Sequence record: OQ031495
From: Escherichia phage MRostami-2023e
Reading direction: 5' to 3' (one strand)
DNA length: 64,000 bases
Part shown: piece after piece, positions 3,272 to 43,217 of the stretch
Layout of the letters: each line of letters begins with the position of its first letter
Position numbering within the stretch: the first letter of the stretch is position 1
Notes under the pieces: model-generated
Database searches by the model: none
The model's input: the letters and a program-made list of their open reading frames with translations, nothing else
Told to the model about the DNA's origin: nothing
Made by a program: the position numbers and the translations under genes

Positions 3272-3763
3272 TTATTCCCACCAATCAAGAGCAAGAGTTA
3301 CTTCGAACGTTTCAATCTCGTTATTAGAATCCCAATCAAGAGATACTTCACCAACGTTAGTAGGCCACAAGCCGACAATTTCAACTTCTTTAGTGACCGT
3401 TTTAGCATCACGAGCAAATTGACGAACGATAGCAGACTTTTTATATTCAGCAGGTTTACCACCGGTAATTTCATTACCTTGTCCTGCTGCAATACCTTGC
3501 CAATCAACAAATTTCTGACGAATGCTATGAGCATCATCGTTCATTACTGTAATAGTCCAATCGTCGAATGTACGATCACCAGCCACGTTAATTTTACGGT
3601 TCATATAAGAAACAGGAACCTTTTCAACTATCGCAGCAGGAAGAGCCGTAGCACGACACTGGAAGCTAAAGTTTTGCCCAAGATAAGAGATTTCTACTTC
3701 GAACAGGTTAGGGCGAGCGAAATCACCAGATTCGAAGGCACGAGTTACGTCATCTACAAACAT
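3272..3763 (-). CDS. 19: Tail tube protein gp19
   Basis: 163 aa (T4 gp19 163 aa); between sheath and portal genes. Confidence 0.9.
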   Translation of the reverse strand: MFVDDVTRAFESGDFARPNLFEVEISYLGQNFSFQCRATALPAAIVEKVPVSYMNRKINVAGDRTFDDWTITVMNDDAHSIRQKFVDWQGIAAGQGNEITGGKPAEYKKSAIVRQFARDAKTVTKEVEIVGLWPTNVGEVSLDWDSNNEIETFEVTLALDWWE

Positions 3764-3835
3764 ATTAGCCTCTGTAGTAATATGGGCCTAGGATTAACCG
3801 GATGCCCATAGAATTAATTTTTAAACGATATAGTA

Positions 3836-3843
3836 TATTTATA
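3836..3843 (-). promoter_or_regulatory. Late promoter (TATAAATA) for gene 19
   Basis: tatttata on + strand in the 18-19 intergenic region. Confidence 0.6.
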
Positions 3844-3875
3844 TGGGCTACCGAAATAGCCCATCAGGCGTCTTA

Positions 3876-5858
3876 TTAACCACCTACAGCACCAATTAGT
3901 TCGTCGAAATCGGCACCAGTTGCTGTTGCTACAAAGTTCAATGTAATATAATTTATCGAGCGGGCAGGTTGTAAGTAGAAAGTAGCTACAAATTCATTAC
4001 GGTCGATAACTGCTGGGGTGTTATTGGTAGTATCACAAACAACTTTAAAGTTATATACACCACCGAGAGCTTTAATACCCTGTAGATATTGAGAAGTCTC
4101 TGTACGGAAAGAAGAACGGGTAAATGCGTTGTTCAATTCAAACAGGCGATATTTAGATGCTGAACCAATGTTCGTTTTAACCATATTGAACAAACGACGA
4201 ACGTTAATACGGTCAAATGGTGAAGGAACAGAAGTGGCAGTTTTATCACCGTACAGAACATACCCATCACCACCGGTACCAGTAACAGGGTTAATAGCTT
4301 CCTGATACAAACGATCACGTTGTGCTTGGCGAGTTTCAATTGCAAGCTTAATAACGTTAAGAATTTGTCCACGGTTATAACCGGCTGGAGACATCCAAGG
4401 CTGAGAAATATTGTCTGTACGAGCACAAAGTCCAGCGATATCAGCGGCTAATGGAACCCAACGATTCACATCATTATATTTGTCATATTGATATTTATAG
4501 TTACCGTCAATAGCGGCATAAGTAGAACTTACATTAAAGTTATTATCGGTGTAAGTTCCTGACGCAGTACGCCAATCAACCAGATTATCAACTGCACGAT
4601 TAACAGGAATACCGACTATAGTTGCACGTGGCGGTGAGCAAAGAACCAAGCAATCTTGACGAGAATCACCAATTGCTACAACATGTTTCTGAACTGTAGA
4701 AGCAACTTCTAAAGATTCACCTGCACAAGAACCGGCAATAAACAACTGCGCATTAACAGATTCACGGTCAGCAAACAAATCCCAAGCTTCCATTAAATCA
4801 CCAGCGTCAACCGTTTCATTAGATGATAAGCCACCACCCAGTTTGATTACGCCAGAGAAACCTTTTGGCCAACCTTGTGCAGTAGCGAAAATATAATTGC
4901 TTGCGCCTTTAGCAAAGAAATCATCAATAAAGATATTACTACCATAAATATCGCGTTCACCACGTTTAGTAGAAAGAACTACGCTCTGAACTACAGCATC
5001 GTTACGACGAACGATAATTGCATATTGGTCATCAGTTTGTGGGCCATACCCAAAGATTGCTTTAGCAGTAGATGCACGAGTACCACCATCAGGATAAATT
5101 TTTAACTGGGCTGAAGCACCTTTGTCATAGTCTGCTTTAGATACGATTTCAATTTCGAGCTGGTCGCCAAGTTCACCAGGATAAAGAGCAACTACGCCTG
5201 GGACACCATATTTTTTAATAGATTCTTGGAAAGTTAGAGAAGTAATAGCTTCTTCAGAAGTTTCAACTTCAGTTAACAGAATACCCGAATCGGTTACGAT
5301 AGAACCAATTGTAATAACGCCAGAGAGACCAGAAGAAGAACTGGCAACTTCGGCGGTCCAGTTAGAACCCAATGCCGGATATTCATTAATTTCTTTTGCA
5401 CGAGCAATAATTTTACCGGTTGGGATATAAATGTTAAGAATTTTACCATCGACATCAACTGAAGTGACATAACCATCTGCTTCAACAGTTTCGGTCAAAT
5501 ACTTAACGATAATTTTATCACCAACTGCATAGTTACTACCAGTAGCAGAGATTGTGAATTCAATATTGCCTGCTACAGGAGATGAGTTCTTAGCAGTATC
5601 ACGATCAACTGCGCGTACAACACGAAGGTCATTACCATATTGAAGGAAGTTCATAGCAGACATGAAATAATCTGCTGTATCCGTATTAGGAGTACCAAAC
5701 ATATCAACTAATGCAACTTCATCAGTGATTTGTTTAATCTGGAATGCAGGTCCCCATTGGAATTTTCCAGCCAGGGCAGCAGTACCAGTGGAGTTATTAA
5801 CTACAGTACTCTGTACGGTAGTTTCTTTGAGCTCAACGCCCGGAGAGAGAAGTGACAT
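3876..5858 (-). CDS. 18: Contractile tail sheath protein gp18
   Basis: 660 aa (T4 gp18 659 aa); MSLLSPGVELKETTVQSTVVNNSTGTAALAGKFQWGPAFQ... Confidence 0.93.
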   Translation of the reverse strand: MSLLSPGVELKETTVQSTVVNNSTGTAALAGKFQWGPAFQIKQITDEVALVDMFGTPNTDTADYFMSAMNFLQYGNDLRVVRAVDRDTAKNSSPVAGNIEFTISATGSNYAVGDKIIVKYLTETVEADGYVTSVDVDGKILNIYIPTGKIIARAKEINEYPALGSNWTAEVASSSSGLSGVITIGSIVTDSGILLTEVETSEEAITSLTFQESIKKYGVPGVVALYPGELGDQLEIEIVSKADYDKGASAQLKIYPDGGTRASTAKAIFGYGPQTDDQYAIIVRRNDAVVQSVVLSTKRGERDIYGSNIFIDDFFAKGASNYIFATAQGWPKGFSGVIKLGGGLSSNETVDAGDLMEAWDLFADRESVNAQLFIAGSCAGESLEVASTVQKHVVAIGDSRQDCLVLCSPPRATIVGIPVNRAVDNLVDWRTASGTYTDNNFNVSSTYAAIDGNYKYQYDKYNDVNRWVPLAADIAGLCARTDNISQPWMSPAGYNRGQILNVIKLAIETRQAQRDRLYQEAINPVTGTGGDGYVLYGDKTATSVPSPFDRINVRRLFNMVKTNIGSASKYRLFELNNAFTRSSFRTETSQYLQGIKALGGVYNFKVVCDTTNNTPAVIDRNEFVATFYLQPARSINYITLNFVATATGADFDELIGAVGG

Positions 5859-30109: not shown

Positions 30110-30397
30110 ATGAAAACATATCAAGAATTTATNNNNNNNNNNNNNNNNNNNNNNNNNNNNNNNNNNNNNNNNNNNNNNNNNNNNNNNNNNNNNNNNNNNN
30201 NNNNNNNNNNNNNNNNNNNNNNNNNNNNNNNNNNNNNNNNNNNNNNNNNNAAAGGTACTGTTTACCTAGGTGATGGGTGGTCTGCTAAAAAGGATGGTGC
30301 TACAATCGTTATCTCTCCTGCCGAAGAAACTGCGTTGTTTAAAGCTAAACACATTTCTGCAGCACATCTCAAGATTATTGCTAAAAATCTTTTGTAA
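30110..30397 (+). CDS. ipI: Internal protein I (capsid-targeted, injected; interior masked by N)
   Basis: Starts MKTYQEF (capsid-targeting sequence); C-terminal part KGTVYLGDGWSAKKDGATIVISPAEETALFKA... as T4 IPI from memory. Confidence 0.75.
   Translation: MKTYQEFXXXXXXXXXXXXXXXXXXXXXXXXXXXXXXXXXXXXXXXXKGTVYLGDGWSAKKDGATIVISPAEETALFKAKHISAAHLKIIAKNLL
30133..30250. other. N-masked run (118 nt) inside ipI
   Basis: run of n. Confidence 1.
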
Positions 30398-31307: not shown

Positions 31308-31823
31308 ATGAATATTTGTTTAGGCAGTACAATTCCTAAGGGTTACGTAATTGATGTCACTACTTGGGAAAATGACGGCGACAACTATAAAACTAAAACG
31401 TTGTTTGGTGTAGAAGAGCATGAGCTCCAACAGTTTAAATATCTTTTGAAGAAATTTAAGAGCCGTCATTCCAGCACTAAAGCTGAACGTTACTGTGGTA
31501 ATACACTATTCAGTGATTGTTCGCTTTTAATCTATGAATACTTGGTTGAAGGATTGTTCTCAGACCAGCTTTATCCAGAATTCATTAAAAAGGTCTTTGA
31601 TATTGAAGTCGACCTTGGTAATAAATCTGAAGAAGACGAATCACGTGTATTTGACCTGTTCCGTGAGAATGGATATTTGGTATCAGAAGGTCTCACTGAT
31701 ATTCTTGGCCATGCTTCTGAATATTATGATTATGATTTCTTGCGTGTAGTTGAATGTGTTGAATTTGCTTATATTGAAGAAGAAATCGTTTTGCCAACTG
31801 TTAAAATGATTGATTTGCTTTAA
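31308..31823 (+). CDS. Hypothetical protein (171 aa)
   Basis: ORF track. Confidence 0.6.
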   Translation: MNICLGSTIPKGYVIDVTTWENDGDNYKTKTLFGVEEHELQQFKYLLKKFKSRHSSTKAERYCGNTLFSDCSLLIYEYLVEGLFSDQLYPEFIKKVFDIEVDLGNKSEEDESRVFDLFRENGYLVSEGLTDILGHASEYYDYDFLRVVECVEFAYIEEEIVLPTVKMIDLL

Positions 31824-31902
31824 GAATTATGTGTTATTATTAATTCATACCCTCTATTACCAAAGGTGCTCTAAAGTGCCTTTCATAATAGAAAGTTATT
31901 TA

Positions 31903-31977
31903 GGCCCTGTAGCTCAATGGGAGAGCTGTCAGCTCATAACTGATAGGTAGCTGGATCGAAACCAGCCAGGGTCACCA
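31903..31977 (+). tRNA. tRNA with anticodon CAU (Ile2-type or Met)
   Basis: Hand-folded cloverleaf: acceptor ggccctg/cagggtc, D stem gctc/gagc, anticodon loop cuCAUaa, T stem gctgg/ccagc, encoded CCA. Confidence 0.75.
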
Positions 31978-31980
31978 ATC

Positions 31981-32057
<77 letters not shown>

Positions 32058-32075
32058 ACTTCAAGTGAGGAAAAT

Positions 32076-32420
32076 ATGAAAGGTAATGTTTACTTAGTAG
32101 TTCATGATTTAACGTTTTATTTTAACGAACATGATACAGTTATTTCAGACCGATTGATTAATTTGTTATACCAACACGCAGATTACATCTATGTTCAAAA
32201 TGAATTCGGCCATTGGAAGTTCATTAAAAATCGTTCTGGGTTAACTAGTTTTGAATACTTTGATCGTAAAGACCTTTTAAACGAAATCCCATTGCAACAT
32301 CGGTTCCAGAAACGCGAATCATTATATTATTGCCGTCATATACCAAACGCCGAATGTGTTAATGAAGCGATTAATCTATGGAGACGGCGTCGAGAGCAAA
32401 TTGATGATATGCCAAAATAA
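32076..32420 (+). CDS. Hypothetical protein (114 aa)
   Basis: ATG with SD gaggaaaat just after tRNA-Arg; longer ORF-track start would overlap the tRNA. Confidence 0.6.
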   Translation: MKGNVYLVVHDLTFYFNEHDTVISDRLINLLYQHADYIYVQNEFGHWKFIKNRSGLTSFEYFDRKDLLNEIPLQHRFQKRESLYYCRHIPNAECVNEAINLWRRRREQIDDMPK

Positions 32421-32700
32421 GAAGCCGGGTCGCTACCGGTAAGTCGTCGGACTGATGTTCCCTGAGTAAGGACTGGTCTTAATAAATCTTTACGATTTGT
32501 TAATATCCCCTTACACCACAGCAGAAACGGCGCACCGAATTATCGATTCGAGGAAATATCTTTGCCGTAAGCCGAGTAGCGTTTTTGACGGAACGTTCGG
32601 ATATGGTCGAGATATGGCCTTTTAAAAATATTGAGTAGCGTCAACTACTTAATAACCGGGTTCAAATCCCGGCGTTTCGTACAAACACTTGCCTTAGCAG
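32421..32700 (+). ncRNA. Non-coding, relatively GC-rich region with tRNA-like T-arm; candidate stable RNA(s) (compare T4 rnaC/rnaD)
   Basis: No ORF >=60 aa on either strand; ccggg-ttcaaat-cccgg at 32656-32672; could not fold a canonical cloverleaf by hand. Confidence 0.3.
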
Positions 32701-32722
32701 GTGGAACCCCGACAAGGTATAT

Positions 32723-32752
32723 AGCCCCTTCCGAAAGGTTGGGGCTTTTTTG
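32723..32752 (+). terminator. Rho-independent terminator
   Basis: agcccc...ggggct stem followed by tttttt. Confidence 0.7.
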
Positions 32753-32760
32753 TATAAATA
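32753..32760 (+). promoter_or_regulatory. Late promoter TATAAATA upstream of the 32796 gene
   Basis: exact tataaata 36 nt upstream of ATG. Confidence 0.55.
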
Positions 32761-32795
32761 TAGTAAACAATAAACCCACTTTCTAAGGACCATCA

Positions 32796-33428
32796 ATGTA
32801 TACTTTTAATGAATTTTTAGCCGAAACGGAAGTAATCACCGAAGCCGGCGTACGTATGACAAAAGAGAAATGGCAAGCTGCTTACGATGCTATTTCTGGT
32901 ACAAAAACTAGTACAGAGTTTTTCAAAAACGTTCAAGCCATGTACGGTATCGACACTTCCAGCCAAAAAGAATATTACAGAGCTTCTAAAGCATTCAAAG
33001 ATATTGTTAGTGGTGGTGTTTCTGCTAAATCGGGTTCGCCTAAAGTAAAACCTGCTCCTACCATTCCTAAACCTGCGACCCCTAAAGCAATAGCAAAACC
33101 TGAGCCTAAGCCTAAGCCTGAAGTAAAAGCAACTCCTAAAGCTCCTGCTCTTAAGTTTGATACTTCTAGCCTGGAAAAAAAATATAAACAACTATCTTCG
33201 CTTGTTCGCGATATTGAATCCGATACATCTTCACTCGTTCGTGAATTCAATAGTCTTCGTAATGGCCAACATATCAACAACCTTGATACCCCAGACCTTT
33301 ATCGTCTTTATTTGACTATCGAAGGTTTGAAGTATACTCAACCACTTCATGATGAGATTAAAGAAAAACTTCGTCAGGCAGGTCGTTTGGCTGCTGACGC
33401 TGCTCAGTATGCAAAAACTCGTAAGTAA
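32796..33428 (+). CDS. Lys/Pro-rich protein with CTS-like N-terminus (MYTFNEFLAE); candidate virion internal protein
   Basis: 210 aa; N-terminus resembles MKTYQEFIAE; PK-rich linker; own late promoter and terminator. Confidence 0.65.
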   Translation: MYTFNEFLAETEVITEAGVRMTKEKWQAAYDAISGTKTSTEFFKNVQAMYGIDTSSQKEYYRASKAFKDIVSGGVSAKSGSPKVKPAPTIPKPATPKAIAKPEPKPKPEVKATPKAPALKFDTSSLEKKYKQLSSLVRDIESDTSSLVREFNSLRNGQHINNLDTPDLYRLYLTIEGLKYTQPLHDEIKEKLRQAGRLAADAAQYAKTRK

Positions 33429-33433
33429 AGAAT

Positions 33434-33452
33434 GGGGACTTCGGTCCCCTTT
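33434..33452 (+). terminator. Terminator-like hairpin (ggggac-ttcg-gtcccc, short U-run)
   Basis: GC stem-tetraloop directly after stop codon. Confidence 0.5.
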
Positions 33453-33480
33453 AGGGGGTCTATAACTTACTGAAAAAGTT

Positions 33481-33509
33481 GTTTACTTCTTCCCTAGATG
33501 TGTTACTAT
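33481..33509 (+). promoter_or_regulatory. Early promoter (gtttac N17 tactat)
   Basis: -35/-10 match to T4 early consensus; RBS catgaggagaatattATG shared with 38765 copy. Confidence 0.55.
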
Positions 33510-33537
33510 AGACCCATCAAAACATGAGGAGAATATT

Positions 33538-33798
33538 ATGAGTCTTTACACTGAACTGAATAAAAAATCTGAAGAATCTGCTGAAACTATTTTTAAAAAC
33601 GTGCAAAAGCGTATTTTAGAAAAGATGTATAACACTGCAGCTAAAGGTGAAAAATCTTGCCGGTTCCCGATGAGGTGTTCTTCTGATTTATGCGCAAATA
33701 CTATTGAATGGCTGGAAAGTGAAGGTCTTACGGTAGAGAAAAACCCGGCGATTTCTATTGACAGTGAATCATATATTAGTATTTCTTGGGATAAATCA
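33538..33798 (+). CDS. Hypothetical protein (3' end masked)
   Basis: ORF track; runs into N-masked run. Confidence 0.55.
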
Positions 33799-33827
33799 NN
33801 NNNNNNNNNNNNNNNNNNNNNNNNNNN
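33799..33827. other. N-masked run (29 nt)
   Basis: run of n. Confidence 1.
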
Positions 33828-41753: not shown

Positions 41754-41811
41754 TGTTTACTTCCTCCAAGGGTTTTGATACTATACATTCATCAACTACT
41801 TGGAGGAAATT

Positions 41812-42348
41812 ATGACTCGTATCAATTTAACACTTGTTTCTGAACTGACCGACCAACATCTTATGGCTGAGTATCGTGAATTACCACGCGTATTTGGTGC
41901 AGTCCGTAAACATGTTCAAAACGGTAAACGTGTAAAGGATTTTAAAATCTCTCCAACATTTATCTTAGGCACAGGTCACGTAACATTCTTTTACGACAAA
42001 CTTGAATTTTTACGTTTAAGACAAATCGAGCTAATCGCTGAATGTTTGAAACGTGGTTTCAAAATCAAGGACACGACAGTCCAGGATATTTCCGACATCC
42101 CTGCCGAATTTCGTAATAATTATGTCCCGTCCGAAGCGTCCATTGCGATAAGTCAAGCACGCTTAGATGAAAAAATTGCTCAACGTCCGACTTGGTACAA
42201 ATACTATGGTAAATCAATTTACCAAGGAAAAATGAAAATGTATCAAGAATTTATCATTGAAGCAGATGCCAAAGGTCCTAAAGTAGATGTTGACGATATT
42301 GGATACGATTTTAACAACTTCGGAATTATTTCTGGCGGTAAAGCTTAA
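41812..42348 (+). CDS. denV: Endonuclease V (pyrimidine-dimer DNA glycosylase) with C-terminal in-frame extension into a CTS-bearing mini-ORF
   Basis: First ~136 aa match T4 DenV as recalled; ORF lacks a stop at the expected position and continues ...[17 protein letters not shown]... to 42348. Confidence 0.85.
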
Positions 42349-42411: not shown

Positions 42412-42729
42412 ATGAAAACATATAAAGAATTTATCGCCGAATCTGCTGCAGGACAACGTGTAGAAGGTGGTTATATCTGGATTGAACAAGTTGAGCCGCC
42501 AAGTCGCACTTCTACAGGTAAATGGAAAATCACTGTTGATGGTCCTGGTGGTAAACGTAGGACTCTTAAAGAAATTAATGGGTACTATGAAGAAGCTCTT
42601 TCTGACGCGGGTACTTATATGATGCAAATCATGATTAAAAACCCAGAAAATCGTTTTGCGGCTAGAGTTTTCCGCCGTATTGGAAATAAGCTTTATGATG
42701 CATATTCTAAAAACTTCCCTAAAGAATAA
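42412..42729 (+). CDS. Internal-protein-like gene with capsid-targeting sequence (MKTYKEFIAE)
   Basis: 105 aa; CTS N-terminus; own promoter. Confidence 0.65.
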   Translation: MKTYKEFIAESAAGQRVEGGYIWIEQVEPPSRTSTGKWKITVDGPGGKRRTLKEINGYYEEALSDAGTYMMQIMIKNPENRFAARVFRRIGNKLYDAYSKNFPKE

Positions 42730-42777: not shown

Positions 42778-43217
42778 NNNNNNNNNNNNNNNNNNNNNNN
42801 NNNNNNNNNNNNNNNNNNNNNNNNNNNNNNNNNNNNNNNNNNNNNNNNNNNNNNNNNNNNNNNNNNNNNNNNNNNNNNNNNNNNNNNNNNNNNNNNNNNN
42901 NNNNNNNNNNNNNNNNNNNNNNNNNNNNNNNNNNNNNNNNNNNNNNNNNNNNNNNNNNNNNNNNNNNNNNNNNNNNNNNNNNNNNNNNNNNNNNNNNNNN
43001 NNNNNNNNNNNNNNNNNNNNNNNNNNNNNNNNNNNNNNNNNNNNNNNNNNNNNNNNNNNNNNNNNNNNNNNNNNNNNNNNNNNNNNNNNNNNNNNNNNNN
43101 NNNNNNNNNNNNNNNNNNNNNNNNNNNNNNNNNNNNNNNNNNNNNNNNNNNNNNNNNNNNNNNNNNNNNNNNNNNNNNNNNNNNNNNNNNNNNNNNNNNN
43201 NNNNNNNNNNNNNNNNN
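42778..43217. other. N-masked run (440 nt)
   Basis: run of n. Confidence 1.

Follow-up and report, generated by a model that had tools for sequence, protein, structure and literature searches.

A probable new family of T4-type internal head proteins at a third genomic site in Mosigvirus and related phages

Internal proteins (Ips) of T-even phages were reportedly described by Repoila et al. in 1994. In T4, the internal protein IPIII begins with a ten-residue capsid-targeting sequence (CTS), MKTYQEFIAE, in which amber-suppressor mapping assigned positions 4 and 7 to capsid targeting and positions 8 and 10 to processing (PMC9026906). Each T4-type Ip tested so far inhibits one particular host nuclease directed at modified phage DNA. 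The T4 proteins Ip1, Ip2 and Ip3 each inhibit a different GmrSD type IV nuclease (three variants in all), and in phage Bas37 the non-homologous CTS protein Bas37_0260 inhibits McrBC; the CTS proteins characterized so far are all injected and all inhibit type IV restriction (PMC12373910; bioRxiv 10.1101/2025.11.20.689424). T4-type phages also carry mobile regulatory cassettes, known as PeSL (Arbiol et al. 2010; Comeau et al. 2014; PMC2839356, PMC4122927). Here, we analyzed a stretch of 64,000 nucleotides from Escherichia phage MRostami-2023e (sequence record OQ031495; hereafter, the window) and, within it, an open reading frame (ORF) at positions 32796-33428, whose 210-residue product starts with MYTFNEFLAE, exactly as an earlier note on this DNA had quoted it.

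The best explanation of this gene, to which we assign a probability of about 0.7 on the basis of sequence comparison, is that it encodes a head-packaged, protease-processed T4-type Ip, probably an injected anti-defense effector. The anti-defense role is proposed as the probable one by analogy with Ip1-3 and Bas37_0260. While the Ip class is well known, the family of this ORF has never been named as such in databases, and its sequence features indicate that it very probably constitutes a new, unannotated family of T4-type internal proteins with a third genomic site, a late promoter of its own and a modular two-domain build. The gene is real and under purifying selection, its tag and late box are conserved, its architecture is modular, and its insertion site is defined.

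The window protein shares with T4 IPIII and the wider Ip class (IPI, IPII, Bas37_0260) the ten-residue CTS, the same functional residues within it and a protease site ending in Glu. Its size and charge are nearly identical to those of IPIII (210 versus 193 residues, 26 Lys each, isoelectric point (pI) ~9.5), and, as in the Ip class, the gene is an accessory one that varies from phage to phage and runs in the same direction within the 57B-tRNA-e-denV segment. In contrast to the class, its mature part has no sequence or fold similarity to T4 IPI, IPII or IPIII, it lies at a third site rather than next to 57B or e/denV, and it has its own late promoter behind a terminator, whereas the window's Ip genes at 30110 and 42412 stand behind early-type promoters. 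IPI* differs further in being a single compact domain, whereas the window protein, whose packaging is a prediction from sequence, combines two independently swapped domains with a long Pro/Lys/Ala spacer.

Capsid-targeting sequence and late promoter

The elements on which the assignment to the Ip class chiefly rests are the following.

32753-32760, + strand: T4-type late promoter box TATAAATA; exact match, with 35 nucleotides (nt) between the box and the ATG.
32796..33428, + strand: coding sequence of the putative internal head protein, PHROG 2280; 210 residues, stop codon included in the coordinates.
32796..32825, + strand: capsid-targeting sequence MYTFNEFLAE (residues 1-10) with the predicted prohead-protease site LAE10/T, from the match to T4 IPIII positions.
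32826..32843, + strand: second predicted protease site ITE16/A17 (TEVITE, residues 11-16), from the alignment and from likeness to T4 IPI and Alt.

At the four mapped CTS positions, the window protein has F4, F7, L8 and E10 where IPIII has Y, F, I and E; it thereby carries the aromatic residue at position 4 and the Phe at position 7 that mark the Ip-class tag. Among 37 N-termini compared, position 4 is F or Y in 35, position 7 is F in 32, and positions 8 (L or I) and 10 (E) are kept in 35 each. The tag persists in ~35 homologs even though their mature parts drop to ~33% identity and some of their N-terminal domains are non-homologous, and the copies at the same locus in other phages start canonically (MKTYNEFLNE in JS98 orf135, MKTYAEFLTE in RB69 ORF149c). 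A search of all six frames of the window with the relaxed pattern M..[FY].[ED][FIL][LIV].E returned five matches against 0.025 expected from 200 shuffles, an enrichment of ~200-fold. All five lie on the + strand, four at the starts of long ORFs and one at 42232, in the in-frame tail of the denV ORF; besides the ORF at 32796, the pattern-bearing ORFs are three Ip-type ORFs (41472, 42412 and 42746) and the 38-codon denV tail. The sequence of the ipI-type gene at 30110 is masked beyond MKTYQEF. Judged against the shuffled sequences, the CTS resemblance of the N-terminus is far beyond chance. The codons that encode the tag are not the ones found in the window's other ip genes, and the similarity is therefore kept at the peptide level and does not reflect a recent DNA copy.

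Two sites of the gp21 type ([L/I]-x-E) are predicted behind or within the tag, namely LAE10, whose Glu is the position-10 residue counted above (35/37 members), and ITE16. In a 10-sequence alignment, E16 is invariant and A17 nearly so. Sequence comparison places the same motif at the end of the T4 IPI (Ip1) propeptide (..STITE/ATL), and ITE/A is presumably the cleavage site of that protein. Set side by side, MKTFKEF...STITE/ATL of IPI and MYTFNEFLAETEVITE/AGV of the window protein share Phe at position 4 and the ITE/A ending; IPI differs in having a single site, at residue 19, against two candidate sites at E10 and E16, and the sequences after the cleavage point are dissimilar. ITE is likewise the cleaved motif in T4 Alt (ITE-6; PMC5694885). 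The shorter homologs from CHI14, Marfa and RB69 carry the ITE/A-type site only, and A17 is for this reason most likely the mature N-terminus.

The exact late box that the earlier note had placed 36 nt upstream is indeed there, the distance being right to within 1 nt. Since late genes have such a box shortly upstream, at about -10 of the transcript start, the ORF is predicted from sequence to be one of them, with transcription expected to start at ~32766-32768. Exact TATAAATA occurs 13 times in the 64 kb, five times on the + strand, a total not significantly above that in shuffled sequences. Its placement is non-random: most copies lie 24-78 nt upstream of ORFs, late structural genes included. 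Across the family, a NATAAATA box lies 30-48 nt 5' of the ATG in 11 of 11 loci of a first set, counting the degenerate AATAAATA of RB69, and in four of five further loci with an upstream region of their own, the exception being a Serratia-phage contig (L023). The genes that have no box are the second of a tandem CTS pair (fHe-Yen9-01 gp153 and L023). The box takes the form TATAAATA in Mosigvirus, JS98, fHe-Yen9-01 and Karamvirus-type loci, and the form GATAAATA or CATAAATA in CHI14, Kanagawavirus, Marfa and metagenomic loci. These boxes are embedded in at least five unrelated classes of upstream sequence; the box has therefore been kept by function, not by descent. That the protein is late-transcribed, CTS-bearing and packaged, as previously proposed, is well supported by this comparison, in which box and tag are conserved among divergent homologs that have drifted in both their intergenic DNA and their mature parts.

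Two-domain architecture, family and domain exchange

The ORF uses the first start codon available downstream of a stop. Its ratio of nonsynonymous to synonymous substitution rates (dN/dS) over the whole length is 0.11-0.27 against four homologs, estimated pairwise by the Nei-Gojobori method, with synonymous sites saturated for distant pairs; by this measure it is a real, functional gene under purifying selection. The precursor has a mass of 23.4 kDa, a pI of 9.5, a net charge of +10, 26 Lys and 14 Pro, and is thus small, basic and, in its distribution, variable between related phages, as Ips are. Three segments follow the tag and the second protease site.

32844..33029, + strand: N-terminal helical domain, type A (residues 17-78), with the motif ERMTKxKWQ..YGIDTSSQKEYYK; from the AlphaFold2 (AF2) model and dN/dS.
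33030..33155, + strand: Pro/Lys/Ala-rich disordered linker (residues 79-120); 12 Pro, 10 Lys, net charge +8.
33156..33425, + strand: C-terminal helical domain, type C (residues 121-210), FDTSSL..YKQL..LVREF..LRNGQHINNLDTPDLY..YTQP; from the AF2 model and conservation.

The AF2 model, built from a shallow alignment of 12 sequences, predicts two domains at residues ~20-72 and ~121-208 with predicted local distance difference test (pLDDT) scores of 75-87. The helices of the N-terminal domain are placed at residues 23-31, 39-50 and 57-72 (pLDDT 80-87), and its dN/dS is 0.08 against JS98 and CHI14; those of the C-terminal domain, which holds most of the family's invariant columns, are placed at residues 124-155, 166-179 and 182-208 (pLDDT 75-86). 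Between them, residues 74-116 are predicted to be disordered (pLDDT 33-44). The Pro/Lys-rich stretch that had been pointed out earlier is present at residues ~79-120 with the composition listed above, and is the least conserved and fastest-evolving part of the protein: its dN/dS is 0.47-0.92 against JS98 and CHI14, compared with 0.08-0.17 for the two domains, and it differs by a KP-unit indel from that of the near-identical phage G2469.

In composition, the stretch resembles only the spacers of TonB and of the 2-oxo-acid dehydrogenase E2 proteins, likewise low-complexity runs of X-Pro repeats (KP, EP, AP) that separate folded domains; the likeness is compositional only, and the window protein, unlike these proteins, has no TonB C-terminal, lipoyl or catalytic domain. 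Because it is poorly conserved, variable in length, predicted to be disordered and similar to nothing but these spacers, the Pro/Lys run is read as an interdomain linker. On sequence and model evidence, it behaves as a disordered, length-variable linker under relaxed selection that joins two helical domains; it is not a conserved DNA-binding motif.

Searches against Pfam, NCBIfam and PHROGs returned no functional family: the protein belongs to phrog_2280 ("unknown function"), and the other matches were a sub-threshold one to SIX1_SD and low-complexity ones to TonB, ClfB and SucB. Membership in the TonB family was rejected, as the match to NF008084 (20.9 bits against a cutoff of 315) covers only the proline-rich spacer, residues 80-124. 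The source names of the cluster and its relatives are all "hypothetical" or "uncharacterized". A profile search of 1.84 billion representative proteins yielded 14 clusters at 50% identity, and tblastn matched 138 phage records. All clusters look phage-derived except P0028 (E = 2.6e-4), an acyl-carrier-type repeat protein with AP-rich linkers; this weak match was regarded as compositional and P0028 was not accepted as a relative. The family spans Mosigvirus, Dhakavirus, Winklervirus, Kanagawavirus, Tegunavirus, Karamvirus and Marfavirus, and the phages bearing it infect Escherichia, Shigella, Serratia, Yersinia, Enterobacter, Klebsiella, Kosakonia, Cronobacter and Erwinia. Among the 138, we noted none from a T4-type phage (Tequatrovirus).

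RB69 carries, at the same locus on its minus strand (L002), a divergent and apparently truncated relative of 146 residues. It is annotated as two overlapping hypothetical ORFs, RB69ORF149c/148c, not as an internal head protein, and the AATAAATA box upstream of it is degenerate. A tblastn search found no frameshifted continuation of this copy, and we therefore regard it as a truncated or divergent variant. Absence from T4 and truncation in RB69 suggest that the gene is non-essential.

Comparison of the domains one by one showed that the N- and C-terminal domains are exchanged independently among phages. The N-terminal domain of IME523 is identical to that of myPSH1140 at 50 of 63 positions, and its C-terminal domain is unrelated to any other. 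P0025 combines a window-type C-terminal domain with an N-terminal domain common to fHe-Yen9-01 gp153 (43/57) and not to the window protein; this unrelated type B domain replaces type A in P0025, P0027 and fHe-Yen9-01 gp153. In fHe-Yen9-01 gp154, the C-terminal domain is of the window type (59/90) and the N-terminal domain is barely recognizable, while in IME523/P0023 and in P0026 the C-terminal domain has been replaced by unrelated domains. The Kanagawaviruses Kosakonia phage 305 and IME523 carry different alleles behind near-identical upstream DNA.

Two tandem arrangements were also observed. In fHe-Yen9-01 (L006, 2080-2616), gp153 (MLEYSEFLKE; phrog_2280, 1.5e-57), a paralog whose N-terminal domain is different, comes directly after the homolog gp154. 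In the Serratia-phage contig (L023, 1292-1504), a 70-residue ORF starting with MDFKQFVNES overlaps the start of the family member P0026.

Candidate roles of the protein

From the tag, the promoter and the processing sites, we infer a course of events that extends from the timing of transcription through packaging, cleavage and injection to the target. Late in infection, gp55/gp33-modified RNA polymerase would start at TATAAATA, just past the terminator of the tRNA/rnaD/rnaC unit; because it would start at a late box lying behind a terminator, the protein should be made mainly while proheads assemble. The MYTFNEFLAE tag would bind the scaffolding core and take the protein into the prohead, where the gp21 prohead protease is predicted to cut after Glu10 and/or Glu16 (LAE/T, ITE/A). 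The mature product of cleavage, basic (pI ~9.7) and ~21.5-22 kDa in mass, would remain alongside the DNA in the head and be ejected along with it into the next host. There, within the first seconds of infection, its most likely role would be to inhibit a defense that attacks the arabinosyl-hydroxymethylcytosine (hmC) phage DNA. RB69-type phage DNA carries arabinosyl-hmC, a target of type IV enzymes (PMC6024577).

Several observations weigh against assigning the protein to the injected Ips. A dedicated late promoter is not typical of the Ip class in this window: the other four CTS genes have no such box within 160 nt, and two of them (30110 and 42412) stand behind early-type promoters. Flanked by the rnaC terminator and the e.8-side genes, the gene is outside both described ip loci (next to 57B and next to e/denV), which are typical of the class, if not strictly defining for it. 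The tag has Tyr or Leu in place of Lys at residue 2, and its residue 3 is variable in many members. BLASTP against T4 IPI, IPII and IPIII and the window's other CTS ORFs matched only the first 11-26 residues, leaving the mature part without similarity to the three T4 proteins. It is also without a fold match outside the family in the PDB or BFVD, and in these comparisons resembles no known anti-defense protein: the PDB sequence-profile search gave nothing below E = 0.6, and Foldseek of the AF2 model against PDB and BFVD gave only family members and helical hairpins of a generic kind (WXG100/EsxB-like, E > 1). Since the known Ips are mutually non-homologous, this missing similarity is no argument against an anti-restriction function. 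No positive selection was seen in the pairwise Nei-Gojobori comparisons, both domains being under purifying selection with no sign of an arms race. Finally, the literature search returned no virion proteomics, cleavage or injection data on any family member; nor were usable virion proteomics or transcript maps found in the literature searched for Mosigvirus, JS98, fHe-Yen9-01 or Kosakonia phages.

An earlier proposal, that the protein is DNA-associated, can be put as a histone-like function: much as a histone H1 tail does, the Lys/Pro segment would bind the packaged DNA and neutralize it, with condensation as the main role. The net charge (+10 to +14; pI 9.5-9.8), with the linker alone at +8, fits this, as does the presence of a P/A/K-rich segment in every member despite sequence drift; T4 Ips were, moreover, classically described as basic proteins packed with DNA (PMC9026906, PMC7697877). 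Yet those same T4 Ips, formerly taken for DNA-packing proteins, proved to be specific nuclease inhibitors (PMC12373910). What selection preserves in the present family is the pair of helical domains, for which no DNA-binding fold was matched, and not the fast-evolving, length-variable segment predicted to be disordered, which is Ala/Pro-rich with few Lys in several homologs (e.g., CHI14) and looks like a TonB or E2 spacer. DNA association as proposed is thus not supported, and condensation as the main role is unlikely, although the positive charge may contribute to packing with DNA. A role in the head of a different kind, that of a transient prohead-core or scaffold accessory like T4 gp67/gp68, which acts in assembly and is then degraded by gp21 and expelled, would follow the same logic of targeting and cleavage. 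Late-only expression would suit it, and two more [LIV]xE motifs lie inside the C-terminal domain (VRE150 and IKE190). These motifs, however, lie within predicted stable helices, and the gene, which T4 does not have and which is truncated in RB69 and domain-swapped elsewhere, is an accessory one, unlike the core assembly proteins conserved across T4-like phages (PMC9026906); we regard such a role as improbable.

It is also conceivable, if quite unlikely, that the protein is a late cytoplasmic one that is never packaged, its tag being a relic of recombination among ip 5' ends or cassette boundaries with no targeting function. The deviation of residues 2-3 from the T4 consensus, the site outside the classical ip loci, the promoter arrangement unlike that of the window's other Ip genes and a literature search that turned up no virion proteomics of the family all leave room for this. 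A relic would decay, yet the tag is the most persistent feature of the family, found even in front of non-homologous N-terminal domains (P0025, P0027 and gp153), followed by a conserved Glu-Ala cleavage site, and written in codons unlike those of the window's other ip genes, which points to maintenance at the peptide level. In T4, ten CTS residues alone package foreign proteins (PMC9026906). Least probable of all, and very much so, is a helper of ejection or penetration, in which a TonB-like rod would span the periplasm and aid DNA entry, its ends anchored by the two domains, one located at the tail tip or on the outer side, one at the inner membrane. Alternating KP/EP/AP residues recall the rigid TonB spacer, and two domains and a rod are kept throughout the family; still, the TonB similarity is low-complexity only, far below the family cutoff, the linker varies widely in length (~25 to 50 residues), and the protein lacks a transmembrane segment, a signal peptide and a peptidoglycan-binding domain. 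T4-type phages, in addition, own a dedicated gp5/gp27/gp29 penetration apparatus.

The injected Ip is therefore the reading that we prefer. A bolder extension of it, which we put forward tentatively and consider doubtful, is that the family forms a modular injected-effector system, in which a universal head-loading tag is combined with one N-terminal domain out of two or more, with a proline-rich spacer that also serves for recombination as a joint, and with one C-terminal "warhead" out of three or more, all on a mobile cassette that runs from a terminator/late-promoter unit to a stem-loop/early-promoter unit and moves between T4-like genera, and in which different combinations would neutralize different defenses. 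If this were so, defenses beyond GmrSD-type nucleases would be neutralized in the manner of polymorphic toxins, and one protein might be active against two systems, or serve to tether an inhibitor to another target.

Internal proteins shape host range, and this family is present in at least seven T4-like genera, many phages of which are used or proposed for therapy, yet it is labeled "hypothetical". If the protein is injected, it is a concrete candidate for a new anti-defense factor, and the natural domain-swap variants could be used for mapping specificity. Recognition of the family would correct the annotation in more than 130 phage genomes. The result is an incremental one that introduces no new principle and would not surprise a T4 specialist.

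Genomic site and neighboring elements

The 1.4 kb surrounding the gene match Escherichia phage vB_EQ1 at 100% identity and many Mosigvirus (RB69/JS09-like) genomes at 97-99%; by sequence, the window is an RB69-like Mosigvirus. Its genes run in the order 2, 3, 1, 57A, 57B, an ipI-type gene, tRNA.4/.3/.2, tRNA-Met, tRNA-Arg and an RB69ORF150c-like gene, followed by the ORF at 32796-33428 and then by frd.3, e.6, e.5 and further genes, which is the order of T4 and RB69 read on the strand of the counter-clockwise genes. The elements around the gene are listed below.

~32421-32536 and ~32543-32681, + strand: homologs of rnaD (species 2) and rnaC (species 1), respectively, from the T4 annotation; they mark the insertion point of the gene.
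32723..32751, + strand: intrinsic terminator, an AGCCCC..GAAA..GGGGCU hairpin at 32723-32746 followed by U6; from fold and conservation.
32784..32789, + strand: Shine-Dalgarno sequence TAAGGA, 6 nt before the ATG; from sequence.
33434..33449, + strand: stem-loop GGGGAC-UUCG-GUCCCC with a UUCG loop (element GGGGACTTCGGTCCCC), followed only by UUU; from fold and conservation.
33481..33509, + strand: early-type promoter for the next gene (33538), GTTTAC, 17 nt and TACTAT with an upstream TG; read from sequence.

The window at 32421-32750 is 94% identical over 328 aligned nt to T4 rnaD, rnaC and their trailer, the terminator hairpin included. In T4, the early promoter of e.8 comes next after the rnaC terminator, and no homolog of the ORF is found there; in the window and in JS98, where the copy of the gene is orf135 and e.8 comes right after it, the terminator is directly followed by TATAAATA and the gene. 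Because the T4 terminator leads into e.8 and that of the window and JS98 into TATAAATA and the gene, the gene is an insertion relative to T4. The location in an "early region", as it had been described, is loosely right: the gene comes directly after the tRNA/rnaD/rnaC cluster, and T4 has other late-promoter genes of the same direction there.

The claim that the gene is bracketed by terminators holds on one side. Upstream, the hairpin has a free energy of -16 kcal/mol (z = -4.6; none of 200 shuffles was as stable), recurs after rnaC in T4 and in JS98 and is an annotated terminator in phage G2469; it is predicted to end the tRNA/rnaC unit and so to insulate the gene from upstream early and middle transcription. 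Downstream, the stem-loop at 33434-33449 is trailed by only three T; the scan made no + strand terminator call there, and its fold is no better than that of shuffles (z = -0.6). The stem-loop is kept in homologs with compensatory changes (GGAGAC/GTCTCC in JS98), and we read it as the stem-loop half of a PeSL-like cassette and a possible weak or partial terminator. The element at 33481-33509, which we take to be a T4-type early promoter, falls below the threshold of the sigma-70 scan; an equivalent GTTTAC..TAnnAT lies downstream of most homologs. In the late 5' untranslated region, no hairpin was found, the fold of 32766-32830 being no more stable than shuffles.

The gene is thus bounded by a terminator and late-promoter unit upstream and by a stem-loop and early-promoter unit downstream. 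As in PeSL cassettes, the gene is followed by a stem-loop and early-promoter unit that is conserved across genera, and the gene content between units differs in close relatives (IME523 versus Kosakonia phage 305). The difference is that the upstream boundary here is a terminator fused to a late, not an early, promoter; a role of these units in recombination is putative. In JS98 (L003, about 3300-4000), the rnaC-type terminator is fused to TATAAATA twice, before orf136 and before orf135, and this duplicated unit suggests that the terminator and late promoter may themselves form a duplicated or mobile cassette boundary.

Some minor observations concern the neighboring sequence. The rnaD and rnaC homologs retain their 94% identity to T4 although the surrounding protein genes differ, and an Rfam scan of 31700-33600 reported two tRNAs only, the two homologs matching no family. 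The ORF called mechanically at 32028-32420 has a TTG start inside tRNA-Arg (31981-32057); the ATG at 32076 (MKGNVYLV..., an RB69ORF150c homolog) is its probable real start. The window holds 13 masked runs of N, 2257 bases in total (e.g., 30133-30250, 33799-33827 and 42778-43217), which cut the ipI-type gene, the gene just downstream of the ORF at 32796-33428 and a 162-residue CTS ORF, among others.

Other tagged genes in the window also deserve mention. ORF 41472 belongs to phrog_3499 ("internal head protein"), and ORF 42746 is masked. The ORF at 42412-42729 (105 residues; phrog_3966, "unknown function") starts with MKTYKEFIAE behind an early-type promoter and is, by its sequence, a probable second internal protein that databases leave unlabeled. 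The denV (endonuclease V) ORF at 41800-42348 does not have its usual stop and reads in frame into the 38-codon segment that opens with a CTS-type tag at 42232; this tail may represent a DenV::Ip fusion, an internal start of a mini-Ip, or a decaying ip gene.

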